A stretch of DNA of 64,000 nt from Nostoc sp. DedSLP01 (GTDB lineage: Bacteria > Cyanobacteriota > Cyanobacteriia > Cyanobacteriales > Nostocaceae): assembly GCA_034530875.2 (NCBI GenBank), contig JAVRCJ020000002.1, forward strand, positions 64,001 to 128,000, written 5' to 3'. Within the stretch, counting starts at the first letter, position 1; the number at the start of each line of letters is the position of its first letter. Shown here one piece after another: positions 37,831-50,519 of this stretch. The notes under the pieces are model-generated. The model was not told the origin of the DNA. It saw only the letters and a list, made by a program, of their open reading frames with translations, and did no database searches. Position numbers and translations under genes: made by a program.

Positions 37831-38340
37831 CTATTTTCTGCTAAGAGTTCTCTCTCTAGGATTGTGTCCTGTGAATAGATATTCGAGTAACCTCCTTACA
37901 GCTTCAGTTGCATAGCCGTTATACCGTTTCACTTTCAGGTTGATACATTTAGGCAAGCAGGGGGAGCAGAGGGAGCAGAGGAGGCAGGGGAAGAAAGAAA
38001 AATGATTTGTATCAACAATTGAGTGAAACGGTATTACTTGGTGCGATCGCGTCAGTCGTCCGCGATCGGCTAAAATGCAGAAGGCGCAGTCCCTAATCAT
38101 TTCGCCTGTATCCTTAAGCACAATCGCCAGCTGATACCACTCGCCCAAGACACCTGGTGTTGACTGCTGCATGGATTGTATAAATTTCATGGCTTCCATT
38201 TCTAGATAAGGCGGATCCCAAGTTTGATACTTCGCCACTTCCAGATCGTTGCGATAGGGCAAGAACGCCGCTAGGTCGTTATCCTGGAATCTACGTAACA
38301 GCAATCGTGGAGTTTCCAACCCCATGAGAACTTGAGACAC
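37831..38340 (-). pseudogene. RimJ/RimL-type GNAT acetyltransferase, MITE-interrupted and C-terminally truncated
   Basis: ETPRLLLRRF and GYATEA present; 39 foreign codons inside the Q-x-x-G-Y-A motif; C-terminal GNAT strand missing. Confidence 0.75.
37922..38033. mobile_element. MITE with TTA target duplication
   Basis: TTA|TACCGTTTCACT-N6-TTGATACA...TGTATCAA-N6-AGTGAAACGGTA|TTA. Confidence 0.85.
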
Positions 38341-41773: not shown

Positions 41774-42409
41774 CTATTCTTCTTCCTTCTTGTTTTCAAT
41801 ATTAGTTATTTTGGTATTTTCCATCACAATATAGTTTTCCGGTTTTTTTTGTTCTTCTTTCTTCTCTTGTACAACTTGTGTGGCATATATTTCTACATCT
41901 CGCTGGATAATATCTTCTACTTGACCAGCAAAAAAATTAAATGCCTGTTCGTGACTTGTATAATCACGATAAGGGCCTGTCAATTGGGAAAATTGCCATC
42001 CTTGAGTTTTCAAAGATTCCACCGTGCGGCGATAATGCCGCCAGCGTTCTCCATAATGAAAAAATTCTTCAACGGCAGCGCTAATAGCAACGAATTGGCC
42101 GAGAACAAAAGTAGAAACGTTAATTAAATTTTTAACTTCAATATTAGTTCCAGGAATTTTATTCTTTAAATCAGTATTCAGATTGAGAGTAATCAACGCG
42201 GGCAGAATTACGCCACCGATAATGGTTGATAGCCGCCAAAAATAATAGCGATCGCGGGAAAAATTCGCCTTACCTTCCATCCAAAGTACTTGGTCTAACC
42301 AACGCGATCGTAAAAAATGTCTTTGGACATCTCCTAGCTTCATGCCTTCAAACAATTTGTTAAAATCTTCCTTTAAAAATTCTTGATAACTATTCTTTTT
42401 TGCCATCAT
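41774..42409 (-). CDS. DUF4231/SLATT-family two-TM protein
   Basis: RWLDQ..W, two TM helices, F.Y.ERW..YR.T.E.LK. Confidence 0.85.
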   Translation of the reverse strand: MMAKKNSYQEFLKEDFNKLFEGMKLGDVQRHFLRSRWLDQVLWMEGKANFSRDRYYFWRLSTIIGGVILPALITLNLNTDLKNKIPGTNIEVKNLINVSTFVLGQFVAISAAVEEFFHYGERWRHYRRTVESLKTQGWQFSQLTGPYRDYTSHEQAFNFFAGQVEDIIQRDVEIYATQVVQEKKEEQKKPENYIVMENTKITNIENKKEEE

Positions 42410-43162
42410 TTACTCCTTAGCAGAAAGCAAACCCTTAATTATTTCCCCTAAGTTACCAACTTCTTCCTCTATATCGATTAAATTGATATACAGCAATTTA
42501 CCAGATTTGGCTAATTCTTTAGCGCGATCGTCCGTGGCGTTTCCCACCAAAGCACCAGCGAGTATATCTGCGGTTCTACCACTACCAGCAATTACTACAA
42601 CTAACCTACCAGTATTAACACTAGAAAACGCATCTTTAAAGGTAATTTCGCCACCATTTAAAAGTACTGTTACCGAAGGCGCGCCATTAGCTAATACCGT
42701 CGCCACTTCAGATATCCAAGGAGATTCATCGCCCCAATTACTACCAGGAACTAACACAAAATGAGTATGATTTGGCTCTAACGGCGTCAAATCAGCGTCA
42801 GCTGCTAACTGATTTGGTAAAATCGCTTTCTTTTCAGGTGTCACACCAACCAAAGCAAACTTAGCATCTATTTGGGTACGAGCCGCACCCATTAATCGCA
42901 TGACTCCCGCATCCGTACCCCCATCCACGACATAAGCGCCTAAACTTTCAGCGATGGGGGCTAAAACTTCCACGAATAACCGTTGGATGCGGAGAAAGTC
43001 AGCTTCACTGATATTACTCGCACCCCCCACCACCACTAAAACAGGACGCGAACCGCTAAGTCCTATTTCCTCTAAAGCATTTGGCAAATTTGTTTGTTGA
43101 TTAACTCGAATAGCTAATGCTGTTTGTCCGTTGTCAAAGGTAAGTTCCAAACAATTGTTCAT
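42410..43162 (-). CDS. SLOG-superfamily protein, prokaryotic TRPM N-terminal-like (LSDAT)
   Basis: VVVGGA, VDGGTDAGVM, LEPNHTHFVLV, NGG, VIAGSGRTAD. Confidence 0.85.
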   Translation of the reverse strand: MNNCLELTFDNGQTALAIRVNQQTNLPNALEEIGLSGSRPVLVVVGGASNISEADFLRIQRLFVEVLAPIAESLGAYVVDGGTDAGVMRLMGAARTQIDAKFALVGVTPEKKAILPNQLAADADLTPLEPNHTHFVLVPGSNWGDESPWISEVATVLANGAPSVTVLLNGGEITFKDAFSSVNTGRLVVVIAGSGRTADILAGALVGNATDDRAKELAKSGKLLYINLIDIEEEVGNLGEIIKGLLSAKE

Positions 43163-43417: not shown

Positions 43418-43521
43418 CAAATCATAAGTTCATTACAACAATTGCTGCAATGATTTAAGCGTTTTTTATATATGGAATAGCAATTGCTGCAAAGTATTAA
43501 ACATTTTTGCAACTAGTGATA

Positions 43522-43651
43522 TAAGTAGAATGCCGTAAAAAATCAAAGTATGTAACGAAAAGTAAAGTTGCCCAAAAAGCTCTTCCCTCCTGCCTTCTGC
43601 CCTCTGCCTCCTGCCTTGCCATAACGACAATTTTCAACACCAACCTACTTA
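43522..43651. mobile_element. MITE-like element with internal CTGCC[CT] heptamers
   Basis: TAAGTAG...CTACTTA ends. Confidence 0.55.
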
Positions 43652-43834
43652 TTTTCAAGAAAGACTTAAGCCTTTCTTATATATAAAATAGCCTTTGTTG
43701 CAAAGTATTAAGCTTATATCTAAACTATTGACAAACTTTTAAAAGACTGGTCTTATTTAATAAAAATAAGTTGTTTTCCAAATAAAGAAAATGCATCAAC
43801 TCAATAAAATTACCATCAAATCAATAAGATTACT

Positions 43835-44290
43835 ATGTCTATAACATCTACAATTTACAAAATTAACACTCCATCAGTTGCTCATGAAACAATTGATGGT
43901 GAAGTTGTAGTCATTAACCTAAAAACAGGAGAGTATTATAGTTTATTAAAAGTAGCTGCTGAAATTTGGAATCAAATCGAAAAAGGCATCTCTAAACAAA
44001 ACATCATTGCAGAACTCTCTGAACAATATAATAATATCAACCAAGAAATTCAAAATTATGTAGATAATTTTTTTGAAGAACTACAGCAAGAACATCTCAT
44101 TAAGTTAGAAGGAAATAATATAGATATACCAAAAAATTCCAAGGTTTTTTATACACAAATACAAACAGAAACAATTACAGAAAAAATAGAATTTGAACCA
44201 CCAAAATTAAATAAATTTACTGATATGAGAGAATTACTTTTGCTAGATCCCATCCATGAAGTAAATGAAACCGGCTGGCCAAATACTTAG
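43835..44290 (+). CDS. PqqD/RRE-domain protein with C-terminal leader/core-like tail
   Basis: ETIDGEVVVINL.TGEYYSL...AAEIW, F.EEL...LI; tail FEPPKLNKFTDMRELLLLDPIHEVNETGWP. Confidence 0.85.
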   Translation: MSITSTIYKINTPSVAHETIDGEVVVINLKTGEYYSLLKVAAEIWNQIEKGISKQNIIAELSEQYNNINQEIQNYVDNFFEELQQEHLIKLEGNNIDIPKNSKVFYTQIQTETITEKIEFEPPKLNKFTDMRELLLLDPIHEVNETGWPNT

Positions 44291-44413
44291 TAAAATCATG
44301 CAATAGACCTGCCTTGAAAATAGGGACTCTTTACTGGTGACTGGTGACTAGGAAAGAAATATTTTCATTCCTTCGTTGTGAATTGTATTCATGGAGTAAG
44401 AGTGCATAAATAT

Positions 44414-44506
44414 TAGACCTCTTGCAAAAGTCCCTTAATACCCCACCCCCCAGTTCCTCCCCGCAGGCGGGGTGGGGTTCTTTTTTTGATTTCTGCAAGA
44501 AGTCTA
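44414..44506. mobile_element. MITE-like element
   Basis: TIRs TAGACCTCTTGCA / TGCAAGAAGTCTA. Confidence 0.7.
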
Positions 44507-44642: not shown

Positions 44643-45326
44643 ATGAATCAAGGATTGGTTAGTGTTATTATTGCTATAAAAAATGGAGAACGGTACTTAG
44701 CAGCAGCTATTGACAGTGTTATAGCTCAAACTTATAAATGCTATGAAATTATCGTGATTGATGGCAACTCTACAGATAATACTGAAAAAATTGCTAAATC
44801 TTATAAGCAAGTTCGCTACGTATCTCAGCCTAGTCAAGGGATTGCTAATGCTTATAACTTAGGAATCGATCTAGCTCAAGGAGAGTTCATTTCCTTTATT
44901 TCCCATGACGATCTGTGGACACCCGATAAATTAACTATTCAAGTAAATTATTTACTAGATCGTCCAGAAATTCAATACACGATCGCTAGAGTCAAATTTT
45001 TTCTTGAGGAAGGATTTTCTATTCCACCTGGATTTAGACCAGAGTTGTTAATAGGCGATCGTATTGCCTATATTATGGAAACTTTGGTCGTGCGAAAAAC
45101 TATATTTGCTCAAATCGGTATGTTAAATCCTGAACTTAGTGTAGCAGAAGATGTTGATTGGTTTGCTAGAGCTAGCGATCGTCAGGTTTTACACATGGCA
45201 ATTCAGAAAGTTTTACTTTATAAACGCGTTCATGATAGCAATCTTTCATTAACATCATCAATTAATAATCAGAATCTACTAAGTATACTTAGACAATCAA
45301 TTAAACGTAAACGTAATTTAATATAG
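44643..45326 (+). CDS. Glycosyltransferase family 2
   Basis: VSVII, IDGNSTD, SHDD, EDVDW. Confidence 0.92.
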   Translation: MNQGLVSVIIAIKNGERYLAAAIDSVIAQTYKCYEIIVIDGNSTDNTEKIAKSYKQVRYVSQPSQGIANAYNLGIDLAQGEFISFISHDDLWTPDKLTIQVNYLLDRPEIQYTIARVKFFLEEGFSIPPGFRPELLIGDRIAYIMETLVVRKTIFAQIGMLNPELSVAEDVDWFARASDRQVLHMAIQKVLLYKRVHDSNLSLTSSINNQNLLSILRQSIKRKRNLI

Positions 45327-45337
45327 GAAAAATATGG

Positions 45338-46048
45338 ATGGCAAATAATCCATTGGTTAGCGTAATCATTCCAGTGTATAACTGTAATCAATATCTCGCC
45401 CAAGCAATTGAAAGTGTATTATCACAAACCTATCAGCCAATTGAAATTATCGTCGTTGATGATGGTTCAACTGATAATAGTGCTGAAGTTGCAAAGCATT
45501 ATGCTCCACTAATTCGCTACTGTTTCCAATCTAACGCTGGTAGTGGTGCTGCCCGAAATCGTGGCATAGAATTAGCCCAAGGAGAATTCTTTGCTTTTCT
45601 CGATGCAGATGACCTTTGGGTGAAAGATAAATTGATGCATCAAATGGCAGCTTTTAATAATAATAGTGAACTTCATATTGTATTCGGACAAGTCAAACAG
45701 TTTCATAGCCCAGAATTAGATGAGGCTTTTAAAGCCAAAATACACTGTCCTGCTGAATTAATGCCAGGAACTATACCCTCAGCACTACTGATGAAGCGGG
45801 AGGCTTTTTTCCATGTAGGTCGATTTGAAGTTAATTGGCAAGTAGTAGAATTTGCTAGTTGGTATATGCGTGCAAATGAATTAAATATGAATATGCTGAT
45901 TCTGCCAGAATTAGTCACACTCCGACGTTTACACACAACAAATAAAGGGGTTAGCCAACAACGTCAAGAAATTACAGAATATGCGCATATTTTGAAAGCT
46001 TCCCTTGACAGACGTCGGATAGCTAGCGAAAGAAAAGTAGAGGTTTAA
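45338..46048 (+). CDS. Glycosyltransferase family 2
   Basis: VSVIIPVYN, DDGSTD, ARN.G, FLDADD. Confidence 0.93.
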   Translation: MANNPLVSVIIPVYNCNQYLAQAIESVLSQTYQPIEIIVVDDGSTDNSAEVAKHYAPLIRYCFQSNAGSGAARNRGIELAQGEFFAFLDADDLWVKDKLMHQMAAFNNNSELHIVFGQVKQFHSPELDEAFKAKIHCPAELMPGTIPSALLMKREAFFHVGRFEVNWQVVEFASWYMRANELNMNMLILPELVTLRRLHTTNKGVSQQRQEITEYAHILKASLDRRRIASERKVEV

Positions 46049-47299: not shown

Positions 47300-48718
47300 A
47301 TGAATCAAGAATCATTTGACAATACAAATTTAGCAGAAGCTAAATGTAAATTGGCTAATATATGGCAAGTGAAGGGGAGAATAGAATTAGCAACTGCTGG
47401 TTATCAAGAAGCTTTACGATTACAACCAGACTATATACCAGCGTATGAATCTTTGGCTAATTTAAGCATCCATCAAAACCGAATGAATGAAGCAATTCAA
47501 TATTATGAAAAAGCTTTATCTATAAATTTTGAGGCTACAGATTTATCTGTTTATTATATATATCTTGGATTATCATTAAAAATAATTAGACAGGAAGATA
47601 TAGAAATCTACAATTCAGATTTTTTGCAAGCTTACTATATCAAGGATAATCCAAATGGAAAAATAAATTTATCTAGCCAGAAGGAATTTGATTTTCATAG
47701 AAGTGGTTGGAATTTTGCACTCAATGCTTTAAAACCTTTGCATAATAGTCAAGGTATTTTGTTTGATGGATTTATTGAGAATAATTTTGTCTGGGATTAC
47801 GGAATTGCTAATGAAATATCTCCTTTAATTGTGGAAAAAATGAAACGAGATGGAGTATTTAATATCCTGAAAAATAAGTTTGCATTAGAAAAAAAACTAA
47901 TTGTACCTTATACCCAACCTTGGGCAGGTTTCATTCATAATCCACAAGAAATGCCAACTTGGCTTTATTATGAATCTTCTCCTCAAAAACTTTTTACTAA
48001 AGATATATGGAAGAAAAGTTTATATTCTTGCATTGGTCTATTTGCATTTTCAGAATACCATGCTCAATGGTTACGAGAACAAACAGGAAAAATAGTTTCT
48101 ACTTTAATCCATCCAACAGAAATACCAGAAATACAATTCAATTTTCATAAATTTTTAGAGAATCCTGAGAAAAAAGTTGTGCAGATTGGTTGGTGGTTAA
48201 GAAAGCTAAGTGCAATTTATCAGTTACCTATTGCTAAAAATAATGTCTTAAACTTTGAAAAACTAAGATTAATTCCTATGTATTGTGACAATGCAGATGA
48301 ACAGCAAGAAGAAATCATCGCCAAGGAAATTAAGATTAATAATTTAAAAATTGAACCTGCTTTTTCAAGTAATACTAAAGAAATAAAGCATATATCAAAT
48401 ACTGAATACGATATACTCTTGTCAGAAAATATAGCGTTTATGGAATTATATGACTCTAGTGTAAATAACGCAGTTATTGAATGTATTGCTAGAGGAACTC
48501 CACTTTTAATTAATCCTTTACCCGCAGTAGTAGAATATCTTGGGAAAGATTATCCTATGTACTTTACTAGTTTATCAGAAGCTGCAAAAAAAGCTGTGGA
48601 TACTTCATTGATTTTAGATACTCATAATTATTTAATAAATTGTGAAACCAGAAATAAGTTATCTCAAGAGTATTTTTTGAAAAGCTTTGAGGAAAGTGAA
48701 GTCTATCAATTAATTTAA
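47300..48718 (+). CDS. TPR-containing protein with glycosyltransferase-like (GT-B) C-terminal domain
   Basis: N-terminal TPRs; NNAVIECIARGTPLLIN..PAVVEYLG. Confidence 0.7.
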   Translation: MNQESFDNTNLAEAKCKLANIWQVKGRIELATAGYQEALRLQPDYIPAYESLANLSIHQNRMNEAIQYYEKALSINFEATDLSVYYIYLGLSLKIIRQEDIEIYNSDFLQAYYIKDNPNGKINLSSQKEFDFHRSGWNFALNALKPLHNSQGILFDGFIENNFVWDYGIANEISPLIVEKMKRDGVFNILKNKFALEKKLIVPYTQPWAGFIHNPQEMPTWLYYESSPQKLFTKDIWKKSLYSCIGLFAFSEYHAQWLREQTGKIVSTLIHPTEIPEIQFNFHKFLENPEKKVVQIGWWLRKLSAIYQLPIAKNNVLNFEKLRLIPMYCDNADEQQEEIIAKEIKINNLKIEPAFSSNTKEIKHISNTEYDILLSENIAFMELYDSSVNNAVIECIARGTPLLINPLPAVVEYLGKDYPMYFTSLSEAAKKAVDTSLILDTHNYLINCETRNKLSQEYFLKSFEESEVYQLI

Positions 48719-48784: not shown

Positions 48785-49540
48785 ATGCTCAAAGTCACAT
48801 TATCAATTAGTGTTATTCTTCCGGTTTATAACGGAGAGAGGTTTTTAGTGCAGGCGATTGAGAATATTCAAGGGCAAAATTATCAGCCCCTGGAAATTAT
48901 TGTTGTCGATGATGGTTCTACCGATCGCACCGCCGAAATTGCCAAAGAATTTGAGGACAACATTCACTATATCTATCAACCCAATCAAGGCCCTTCCTCT
49001 GCTCGCAATCGCGGAATCAAAAGCGCGCGAGGAGAAGCGATCGCTTTTCTCGATGTTGACGATCTATGGGAAGAGGGAGTATTGGCCGAATTCGCTGATT
49101 ATTTAGTAGCTAATCCCGAAGTGGATATCGTTCAGGGATTAATTCAGCAAATGCAGATAGAGAATCTTCCCTCGGAAAATGATTCTTACCAATTCAAACC
49201 TGTCTTTCAACCTTATCAGTTTATTAATCTGGGGAGTGCTATCTACCGTCGATCGGTGTTCGATCGAGTGGGTTTACTCGACCCCAAGCTACATGATAAT
49301 GAAGATACCGATTGGTTTATGCGCGCTTGGGAAAACGATATTTGTAAAGTTGTTATACCTAAACTTATGTTGTATTACCGAAAACACGATCGCAATATGA
49401 CCCTACACCAAAAAGATTTAGTACATTTCGGAATGCTCAAAATCTACAAGCGTCGCATCGATCGTATGCGGGCGCAGGGGAAAGAAAAACATACTTCCTC
49501 CGTATCCTGGTATAGCTATTATGGTAAAACGCCGGAGTGA
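48785..49540 (+). CDS. Glycosyltransferase family 2
   Basis: SVILPVYNG, DDGSTD, FLDVDD, EDTDW. Confidence 0.93.
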   Translation: MLKVTLSISVILPVYNGERFLVQAIENIQGQNYQPLEIIVVDDGSTDRTAEIAKEFEDNIHYIYQPNQGPSSARNRGIKSARGEAIAFLDVDDLWEEGVLAEFADYLVANPEVDIVQGLIQQMQIENLPSENDSYQFKPVFQPYQFINLGSAIYRRSVFDRVGLLDPKLHDNEDTDWFMRAWENDICKVVIPKLMLYYRKHDRNMTLHQKDLVHFGMLKIYKRRIDRMRAQGKEKHTSSVSWYSYYGKTPE

Positions 49541-49694: not shown

Positions 49695-50519
49695 TTATCT
49701 AGGCAAGCGGTCAAAATCTTGCGGATTTATTTTATCAACATATTTTGAAATAATATCTCCAATCCTGTTTTCAAATTTTATGCCAGAATCCGAAGTGAAA
49801 CTTTGCGGCTCCCACCATACGTAGTTATCAGACGGAAAAGGGAGTGGGTAATAGTCGATTTCTTTCTGATAAATCTCTACTGGGTAAAAGTCAGACATCA
49901 CAATTTGTCCTGGAAAAAAAGTGTTAAGCGTGACTATTTTGTAGGTTAGTTGAGGAAAGACACATTTGATGACCTGATTCAAGCGACTTGGATATGTATT
50001 GTGTTCACAGACAAACAAAATATTATCGTCTGCAATATACCGATAGAAATTAGCAATACGCGCCCTATATAGCTCTATTAATTTGGCAAAATTGTTGGCT
50101 GCGTATAGCTCGTGTTTGCCATCTATTGATTCGTGACGAAACCTCACATTGTATTTAGTATGCTCAATGTAATTATCCTCGGTCACTATCAGGAAATCAG
50201 AGTTACAATAATCCTTAAAGCTTGACTTAATAATTTCACACAGACCATCATAATGATGCAAAGATAAATCAAAAGGTAATGTCAGTTCCCCTTGAGCTTT
50301 TGTCTGTTTATATCCTTGGCGTGTAAGTATGGTGCGTGGAAGACAGCTATATCCTAAAGAAATTATATGGTTATAATTTACTTGTCTCACTATTGCTCTG
50401 TGTGAATATATTAGTGATTTTTTGAACGGCAGGTAATTATCAGTATTTAATTTAAACCTGTACTTATAAAAAGCAGCATAACTTCCTGGAATATTACAAC
50501 AATTTCGCACTTTGGGCAA
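49695..50519 (-). CDS. DUF1796-like putative papain-like cysteine peptidase (start uncertain)
   Basis: IISLG.SC, PFD, F.HE, Y..RI.NF. Confidence 0.7.
   Translation of the reverse strand: MPKVRNCCNIPGSYAAFYKYRFKLNTDNYLPFKKSLIYSHRAIVRQVNYNHIISLGYSCLPRTILTRQGYKQTKAQGELTLPFDLSLHHYDGLCEIIKSSFKDYCNSDFLIVTEDNYIEHTKYNVRFRHESIDGKHELYAANNFAKLIELYRARIANFYRYIADDNILFVCEHNTYPSRLNQVIKCVFPQLTYKIVTLNTFFPGQIVMSDFYPVEIYQKEIDYYPLPFPSDNYVWWEPQSFTSDSGIKFENRIGDIISKYVDKINPQDFDRLPR

Follow-up and report, generated by a model that had tools for sequence, protein, structure and literature searches.

An RRE domain fused to its own leader-like tail in Nostoc sp. DedSLP01: a possible self-bound acceptor protein for glycan assembly

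The 64,000-nucleotide stretch of Nostoc sp. DedSLP01 DNA analysed here (the window) encodes a small protein in which an RRE/PqqD domain is followed, in the same chain, by a leader-like FxxPxL motif and an invariant Asp-Pro (DP) segment. We tentatively propose that this RRE-tail protein is an uncleaved, self-bound acceptor or carrier that is modified at Asp138 for glycan assembly, a reading to which we assign a probability of roughly 0.42. It builds on features that we observed directly, namely the fusion itself, the pattern of conservation, the partner genes, the register of Asp138, and the lack of a leader peptidase, cyclase or precursor near the gene. According to the proposed mechanism, the FxxPxL motif would fill the groove of its own RRE, and the RRE is predicted to dock on the HprK-like kinase of the family. 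Asp138 would then receive phosphate from the kinase, and the PF14907 and glycosyltransferase enzymes would add sugars at this residue. The end product would be a glycan, as the accessory genes for glycan tailoring and export suggest.

Table 1. Features of the RRE-tail gene and of the operon downstream of it (window positions).
Feature	Position	Strand	Remarks
RRE-tail protein, whole ORF, 151 aa	43835..44290	+	
RRE/PqqD domain, residues 4-91	43844..44107	+	Pfam, AlphaFold2 model, Foldseek, conservation, complex model
Variable, disordered linker, residues 92-119	44108..44191	+	pLDDT <50 over 96-116; dN/dS ~1.0 against the G012 copy
FEPPKL, lasso/LPP-type recognition motif	44192..44209	+	Predicted occupant of its own RRE groove
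NKFTDMRELLLL, predicted short strand and helix	44210..44245	+	Residues 128, 130-132 and 134-135 contact the kinase in the model
DPIHEVNETGWP, invariant segment with Asp138, proposed acceptor	44246..44281	+	Asp138 codon 44246-44248, aromatic+18
Dispersed repeat, ~110 nt	44301..44412	.	45 matches to the 341-nt spacer in this genome
Terminator-like hairpin after the dispersed repeat	44459-44487		
GT2 glycosyltransferase, cassette-specific subfamily	44643..45326	+	
GT2 glycosyltransferase, cassette-specific subfamily	45338..46048	+	
PF14907 nucleotidyltransferase-like protein, 294 aa	46301..47185	+	Sole member found in the assembly
TPR and putative glycosyltransferase-like domain (weak GT matches)	47300..48718	+	In 15/80 related loci
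Third GT2, cassette-specific subfamily	48785..49540	+	

Domain layout and predicted fold

The reading frame, its translation and the first nucleotide of FEPPKL are exactly as quoted in the initial annotation (Table 1). Residues 23-89 match PF05402 (PqqD; E 2.4e-14), and the best NCBIfam match is lasso_PqqD_Bac, with 54.9 bits and thus below the cut-off of 80. In an AlphaFold2 model built with 120 homologues, the RRE is confident (block pLDDT 74-94 over residues 1-90), the linker is disordered over 96-116 (pLDDT below 50), and block 121-130 is confident again (pLDDT 86). Residues 126-128 form a strand and 131-135 a helix, ahead of a low-confidence end. It is the confidence of block 121-130 and its strand that place FEPPKL, as a prediction, in the protein's own RRE groove. 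The B1-type RRE fold, a criterion for a lasso system, is present, and the best Foldseek matches are TbiB1 in its leader complexes (5V1V/5V1U) and the B1 protein of 6JX3; these discrete lasso RREs are the best structural matches but bind a separate leader.

The central claim of the initial annotation, that a cis leader-like motif is fused to its own RRE, was upheld, and the fusion proved to be the rule across relatives. Equally, the canonical Gly of lasso leaders and the penultimate Thr (given in the accessible text of PMC10368454) are absent, as had been pointed out: counting F120 as -17, Thr falls at -8 and Leu at -2. That this would not be a standard lasso peptide also stands, with Leu at -2, no cyclase at the locus and no B2 in the genome.

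Conservation of the tail

Relatives of the RRE-tail protein are encoded by 567 of the 579 GTDB pattern matches, the 80 that were kept being named from at least a dozen phyla, and 1388 clusters at 50% identity reach E<=1e-30. Among 249 single-domain homologues, the mean frequency of the top residue is 0.51 in the RRE, 0.16 in the linker, 0.60 at 119-125 and 0.90 at 135-149; the homologue alignment that had been asked for thus finds a tail conserved against a variable linker, and even more so than the RRE. Within FxxPxL, the frequencies are 91% for F, 98% for P and 88% for L, and the aromatic residue lies 18 positions before the Asp of DP in 234 of 244 single-domain homologues. In the wider set of 399 distinct tails, Asp occupies +18 in 397, both exceptions being degenerate inner repeats of tandem proteins, and the search pattern, which fixed +0 to +11 and not +18, did not impose it. 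None of the 399 has Ser or Thr at +17 to +20. Position -2 is Leu in 373/399, so the Thr (or Ile/Val) expected of lasso leaders is missing although FxxPxL is present. The C-terminal extension after the invariant segment varies from 2 to 20+ residues. Among kinase-bearing pairs, tail dN/dS is 0.00-0.13 in five of the six that were computable and 0.46 in the remaining one, a very close pair compared over 30 codons.

As the homologue sets were partly gathered via the tail, the RRE by itself served as the query in control searches. From 401 genomes belonging to the window's phylum, taken as cyanobacterial from its named relatives, 30 loci were inspected, and the tail is present in 14/14 at >=84 bits and in 0/16 at <=71 bits; the low-scoring loci examined in detail are ordinary discrete RREs, some adjoining B2- and cyclase-like genes. 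Two other phyla, each represented by 251 genomes, gave 29 inspected loci: 13 carry the tail, one carries only a leader-like motif and 15 carry neither. All 24 tails recovered by RRE-only searches have Asp at +18. Conversely, a tail-first metagenome search found the RRE in frame in 79/80 cases, the 80th being cut by the contig start. A quick RRE tree put the tailed RREs on one side of a branch from 38 discrete RREs (SH-aLRT 96), with groups defined by the profile of the tailed RREs and the window's own row lost in de-duplication. The tail profile had no match in PDB sequences or the ESM Atlas and one chance match in NCBIfam, and the viral contigs searched held no RRE-tail relative. At one locus (L227, G528:C53), the RRE is followed by a leader-like motif and a short end only, and the DP segment is missing.

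Other residues of the tail were considered as modification sites and set aside. T129 is Ser or Thr in 342/399 tails, and its D and N substitutions fit a helix N-cap (S/T/D/N in 369/399); T146 is Ser or Thr in only 223/399. The case for H141 is weakened because a divergent subgroup has no His there. In that subgroup (L242:7509-7949 on the minus strand; P0161) the tail reads L[AI]DPP[ML]P, keeping Asp-Pro and losing His and GWP, and the L242 copy adjoins a divergent kinase.

The tail appears to have two parts. In 14 tandem-RRE proteins, the leader-like motif follows many of the RRE units, and the DP segment occurs exactly once per protein; in five RRE-RRE-RRE-kinase fusions, the DP segment is internal. 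It therefore seems from these arrangements that FxxPxL behaves as the built-in ligand of the RRE, and that the DP part behaves as a once-per-protein functional site with no need of a free C-terminus.

A kinase and glycan enzymes accompany the gene

The near-obligate partner of the RRE-tail family is an HprK-like kinase, which the initial annotation did not mention. It occurs (E<1e-50) in 13 of the 14 tail genomes among the 401 and in no other genome, and its copy number tracks that of the RRE, including two copies where the RRE has two; ten further genomes of the 401 gave only weak matches, to a longer protein. The family kinase retains the His-Lys-Asp-Asp catalytic set. For 48 of the 80 loci, the downstream sequence is at least 8 kb long; counted with partner profiles built from the very same loci, these contain GT2 (48), the kinase (46), PF14907 (41), an MsbA-like ABC exporter (17) and the TPR-glycosyltransferase protein (13). 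The GT2 subfamily, whose profile had the window's GT2s as part of its seed, scores 235 bits or more in all but one of the 14 tail genomes, and in that one it reaches 212 bits beside the gene. Other neighbours in the family include glycosyltransferases, sulfo-, methyl- and acetyltransferases, epimerases, Wzm/Wzt-type exporters and FkbM; these accessory genes are suited to glycan tailoring and export, and we infer that the end product is a glycan.

Some loci depart from this arrangement. Cyanobacterial loci often have a pair of PF14907 genes, of which the one immediately behind the RRE is degenerate and the one farther away has an intact DxD (L010, L012, L017, L019 and L026). G261, the one other genome in which the GT2 subfamily scores 235 bits or more, has GT2s and PF14907, with no RRE-tail gene or kinase within 18 kb. 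In G038 the kinases lie at a locus separate from the RRE-tail gene (L240, G038:C128), which holds two clade kinases, one of them fused to a GT2, and ABC-2-type-sized genes.

The machinery of a cleaved and cyclized product was also sought. Two lasso-cyclase queries found no macrolactam synthetase in the window neighbourhood or in any of the 80 loci; five asparagine-synthetase-like genes lie elsewhere in this genome, away from the RRE-tail locus. The B2 leader peptidase (PF13471) is absent from this genome (G000) and from 15 of 29 tail genomes, and the only B2 among the 80 loci belongs to a separate discrete RRE ~10 kb away. No recurrent peptidase appeared among 59 further neighbours together with 25 cluster representatives and fusion proteins, and no Pfam match to an SpI-like leader peptidase among the window's neighbours or the scanned neighbour proteins, which cover many but not all ORFs of the loci. 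When the 1110 small intergenic ORFs of 78 loci were clustered, every cluster was confined to four loci or fewer (gene fragments or close kin), and the 28 with a leader-motif match have nothing else in common.

Modelled docking on the kinase

A complex of the RRE-tail protein (P0001) with ATP, Mg and the kinase of locus L026, from another genome, was predicted with a score of 0.80 against 0.00 for the best control. The complex mark is reached by 116/157 solved and 2/215 mismatched pairs, counts that apply roughly given the alignments and ligands used here. The runs showed at least 68% contact agreement, with partner pLDDT of at least 74. In the model, the exposed beta-sheet face of the RRE (E18, E23, V25, I27, Y34 and S36) packs against a conserved kinase helix (L318, A322 and P323), and E18, E23, Y34 and S36 are among the most conserved RRE residues. 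Tail residues 128-135 contact kinase residues 119-120 and the P-loop K204; residues 136-149 have no confident contact, so Asp138 is unplaced relative to the active site. Among solved sequences, the kinase profile matches nothing but HPr kinases and further P-loop proteins, and recall of a like complex is thus not apparent. As a prediction, the model supports binding of the RRE-tail protein to the family kinase.

The locus in Nostoc sp. DedSLP01

In the RRE-tail family generally, the HprK-like kinase is paired with an NTP transferase, but this genome lacks the kinase and its NTP transferase is degenerate. The assembly (8.57 Mb, 99.8% complete) has a single RRE-tail gene and a single PF14907 protein, which is ~50 aa shorter than its closest relative and lacks the first Asp of DxD, as do many cyanobacterial RRE-adjacent copies. 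The 341-nt spacer after the RRE-tail gene contains no kinase remnant. A misassembly hiding the kinase was considered, as contigs break at the dispersed repeat, yet no such kinase was found in any of the 113 contigs; in run X4 of a relative, the contig over the gene end runs on into letters resembling the post-repeat sequence. Nor is there any sign that the window's tail is decaying, its score being at the family median (rank 116/249). Compared with the copy in G012, a relative of the same genus, dN/dS is 0.24 in the RRE, which indicates purifying selection, and 1.01 in the linker, which thus evolves neutrally. G012 also has no kinase, and its tail ends before the DP segment, a pattern consistent with the kinase being lost first and the site afterwards.

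With a GC content of 0.34, against 0.40-0.41 on either side, the locus is AT-rich. It is also patchy within the genus, with matches in three of 24 relatives, one of them weak; together these are in keeping with gain and loss. As the kinase step is missing, either the copy was orphaned recently or it works directly for the GT2s. A promoter scan at the locus gave results at chance level.

Several features around the operon can be recorded. Upstream of the RRE-tail gene, a 52-nt direct repeat occurs at 43449-43500 and 43660-43711 (211 nt apart), with a multi-copy genomic repeat between the two (43537-43650). Divergent from the operon, at 41774-43162 on the minus strand, a SLOG (LSDAT_prok) gene is followed by a gene for a SLATT/DUF4231 two-TM effector, a nucleotide-signalling conflict-type pair. 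Farther off (37831-38340, minus strand), the C-terminal half of a GNAT-like ORF reads as interrupted by repeat-derived sequence. Convergent on the operon (49695-50519, minus strand) is a DUF1796 'putative papain-like cysteine peptidase', which we do not take as the leader peptidase because the ORFs of the 80 related loci include no homologue.

Discussion

The closest parallels are two groups of systems, described here from the accessible portions of the cited sources. With the LPP clusters of Bacillota (LppA/K/B/S/D/N; Popov et al. 2026, PMC13381572), the RRE-tail family shares the RRE, a YxxP-type motif, the HprK-like kinase and NTP-transferase, often an MsbA-like exporter, the absence of a cyclase, a polysaccharide gene setting and the aromatic+18 acceptor register. 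Unlike LPP, as far as that text describes it, the family joins RRE and peptide in one chain (79/80) where LPP has a discrete RRE and a separate precursor, has Asp-Pro at the acceptor register where LPP has Ser, differs in its motif, keeps its C-terminal part invariant where that of LPP is variable, shows no SpI-like peptidase among scanned neighbours and extends over many phyla. With the phosphorylated lasso peptides Bsf (PMC10368454), paeninodin (PadeK; PMC9266682) and pseudomycoidin (PsmK/PsmN; PMC6993621) it shares the B1-like RRE fold, a YxxPxL-like motif, a His-Lys-Asp-Asp kinase and a PF14907-type partner, but, on the published descriptions available, it lacks their B2, macrolactam synthetase, free precursor, penultimate Thr/Ile and Ser acceptor. 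Thus, the family works like the kinase/NTP-transferase arm of the LPP and phosphorylated lasso systems and is a member of neither. Our literature search, confined to openly readable main texts (members may appear in the LPP and RRE-Finder data sets), found no description of a protein that joins an RRE to a leader-like tail of its own, or of the tail motif.

The choice of Asp138 as acceptor draws on these parallels. In the LPP motif YxxPxVLxHQxIxFETxxS, the Ser phosphorylated by LppK is at aromatic+18 (PMC13381572, accessible text), and BsfK phosphorylates Ser3, 19 residues after Tyr(-17), with the Bsf RRE accelerating the kinase (PMC10368454, likewise). Asp138 is in register with the LPP phospho-Ser, a match that is suggestive rather than strong, given three invariant nucleophiles within ~24 tail positions. 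PsmN-type enzymes add hexose onto a phosphorylated residue, according to the part of PMC6993621 consulted. Against an Asp acceptor, kinases of this type act on Ser in the same accessible texts, which state that LppK rejects even S3T (PMC13381572) and that BsfK takes Ser, and also Thr (PMC10368454). The carrier model must also contend with this genome and two Ignavibacteria MAGs, which retain an intact tail without the clade kinase; in the MAGs, this would fit either a kinase-independent role or incomplete assemblies. Aspartyl phosphate is labile. Proline after Asp would block aspartimide formation.

A possible but somewhat doubtful alternative is that the self-bound protein is a permanent, unmodified subunit, a scaffold or activator of the kinase and glycosyltransferases, in which Asp138 is a fixed phosphoserine mimic or serves for docking. 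The substrate of the kinase would then be a sugar or the growing glycan, by analogy with O-antigen chain-capping kinases. The invariant tail does resemble a binding motif, no hydroxyl acceptor is conserved, the RRE-kinase interface is strongly predicted, and natural RRE-kinase fusions exist; retention of the tail in kinase-less copies and the Wzm/Wzt and FkbM neighbours would suit such a role as well. However, a docking residue sits poorly with a DP segment that stays single per protein while the docking units multiply, the kinase has a full catalytic set and the characterised members of its group act on RRE-presented peptides, and the +18 register would have to be chance or a relic.

It seems improbable that the protein is instead a single-chain RiPP precursor, whose tail, once modified, is severed by a host protease or by self-cleavage of the Asp-Pro bond. 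The cut would either free a short core or, as happens in inter-alpha-inhibitor heavy chains, attach Asp to a glycan. Such a precursor would explain the lasso-like leader register, the acidic residues at lasso core positions 8-9 (D144 82%, E/D145 95% in homologues) and the MsbA-like exporter of some long loci, and for ITH3 the accessible text of PMC8267560 documents an Asp-Pro bond that cleaves itself and forms an ester with a glycan. The short cleaved core envisaged by the initial annotation nevertheless finds little room: the segment is invariant, with variability confined to the extension beyond it, whereas LPP cores are described as highly variable (PMC13381572, accessible part); it lacks a conserved Ser, Thr or Cys, and lies inside natural RRE-kinase fusions. 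Furthermore, the loci have neither a cyclase homologue nor a recurrent peptidase among scanned neighbours, their sole B2 serves another RRE, and about half of the tail genomes have no B2 at all. The other suggestion made there, an autoinhibitory leader mimic gating a separate precursor peptide, is very unlikely, since the motif fits the RRE recognition consensus but no conserved free precursor was found among the small intergenic ORFs of 78 loci and the strongest conservation lies after the groove-binding motif.

Returning to the acceptor or carrier reading, a broader version of it, which we consider unlikely to hold in full, is that, in at least a dozen bacterial phyla, RiPP tailoring machinery now serves as a protein-primed glycan factory, with a self-leadered RRE as carrier, a kinase that activates Asp rather than Ser, and PF14907 and glycosyltransferase proteins that build an exported glycan. 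If true, HprK-like kinases would have an Asp-directed chemistry to add to their repertoire, and bacteria a way of making glycans on a carrier protein. What RRE-kinase-nucleotidyltransferase cassettes do in polysaccharide loci is described as open even for LPP and paeninodin (PMC13381572, accessible text). By packing substrate and chaperone into one small gene with one candidate residue, the RRE-tail family makes this question directly testable, and nature has already supplied two deletions, the kinase-less state of the window and the truncated tail of G012, that help to tell kinase-dependent from glycosyltransferase-dependent roles. Finally, a complete cassette (L243, NC_019735.1:5896-14180) resides on a mobilizable cyanobacterial plasmid of 44 kb, which may help it to spread.
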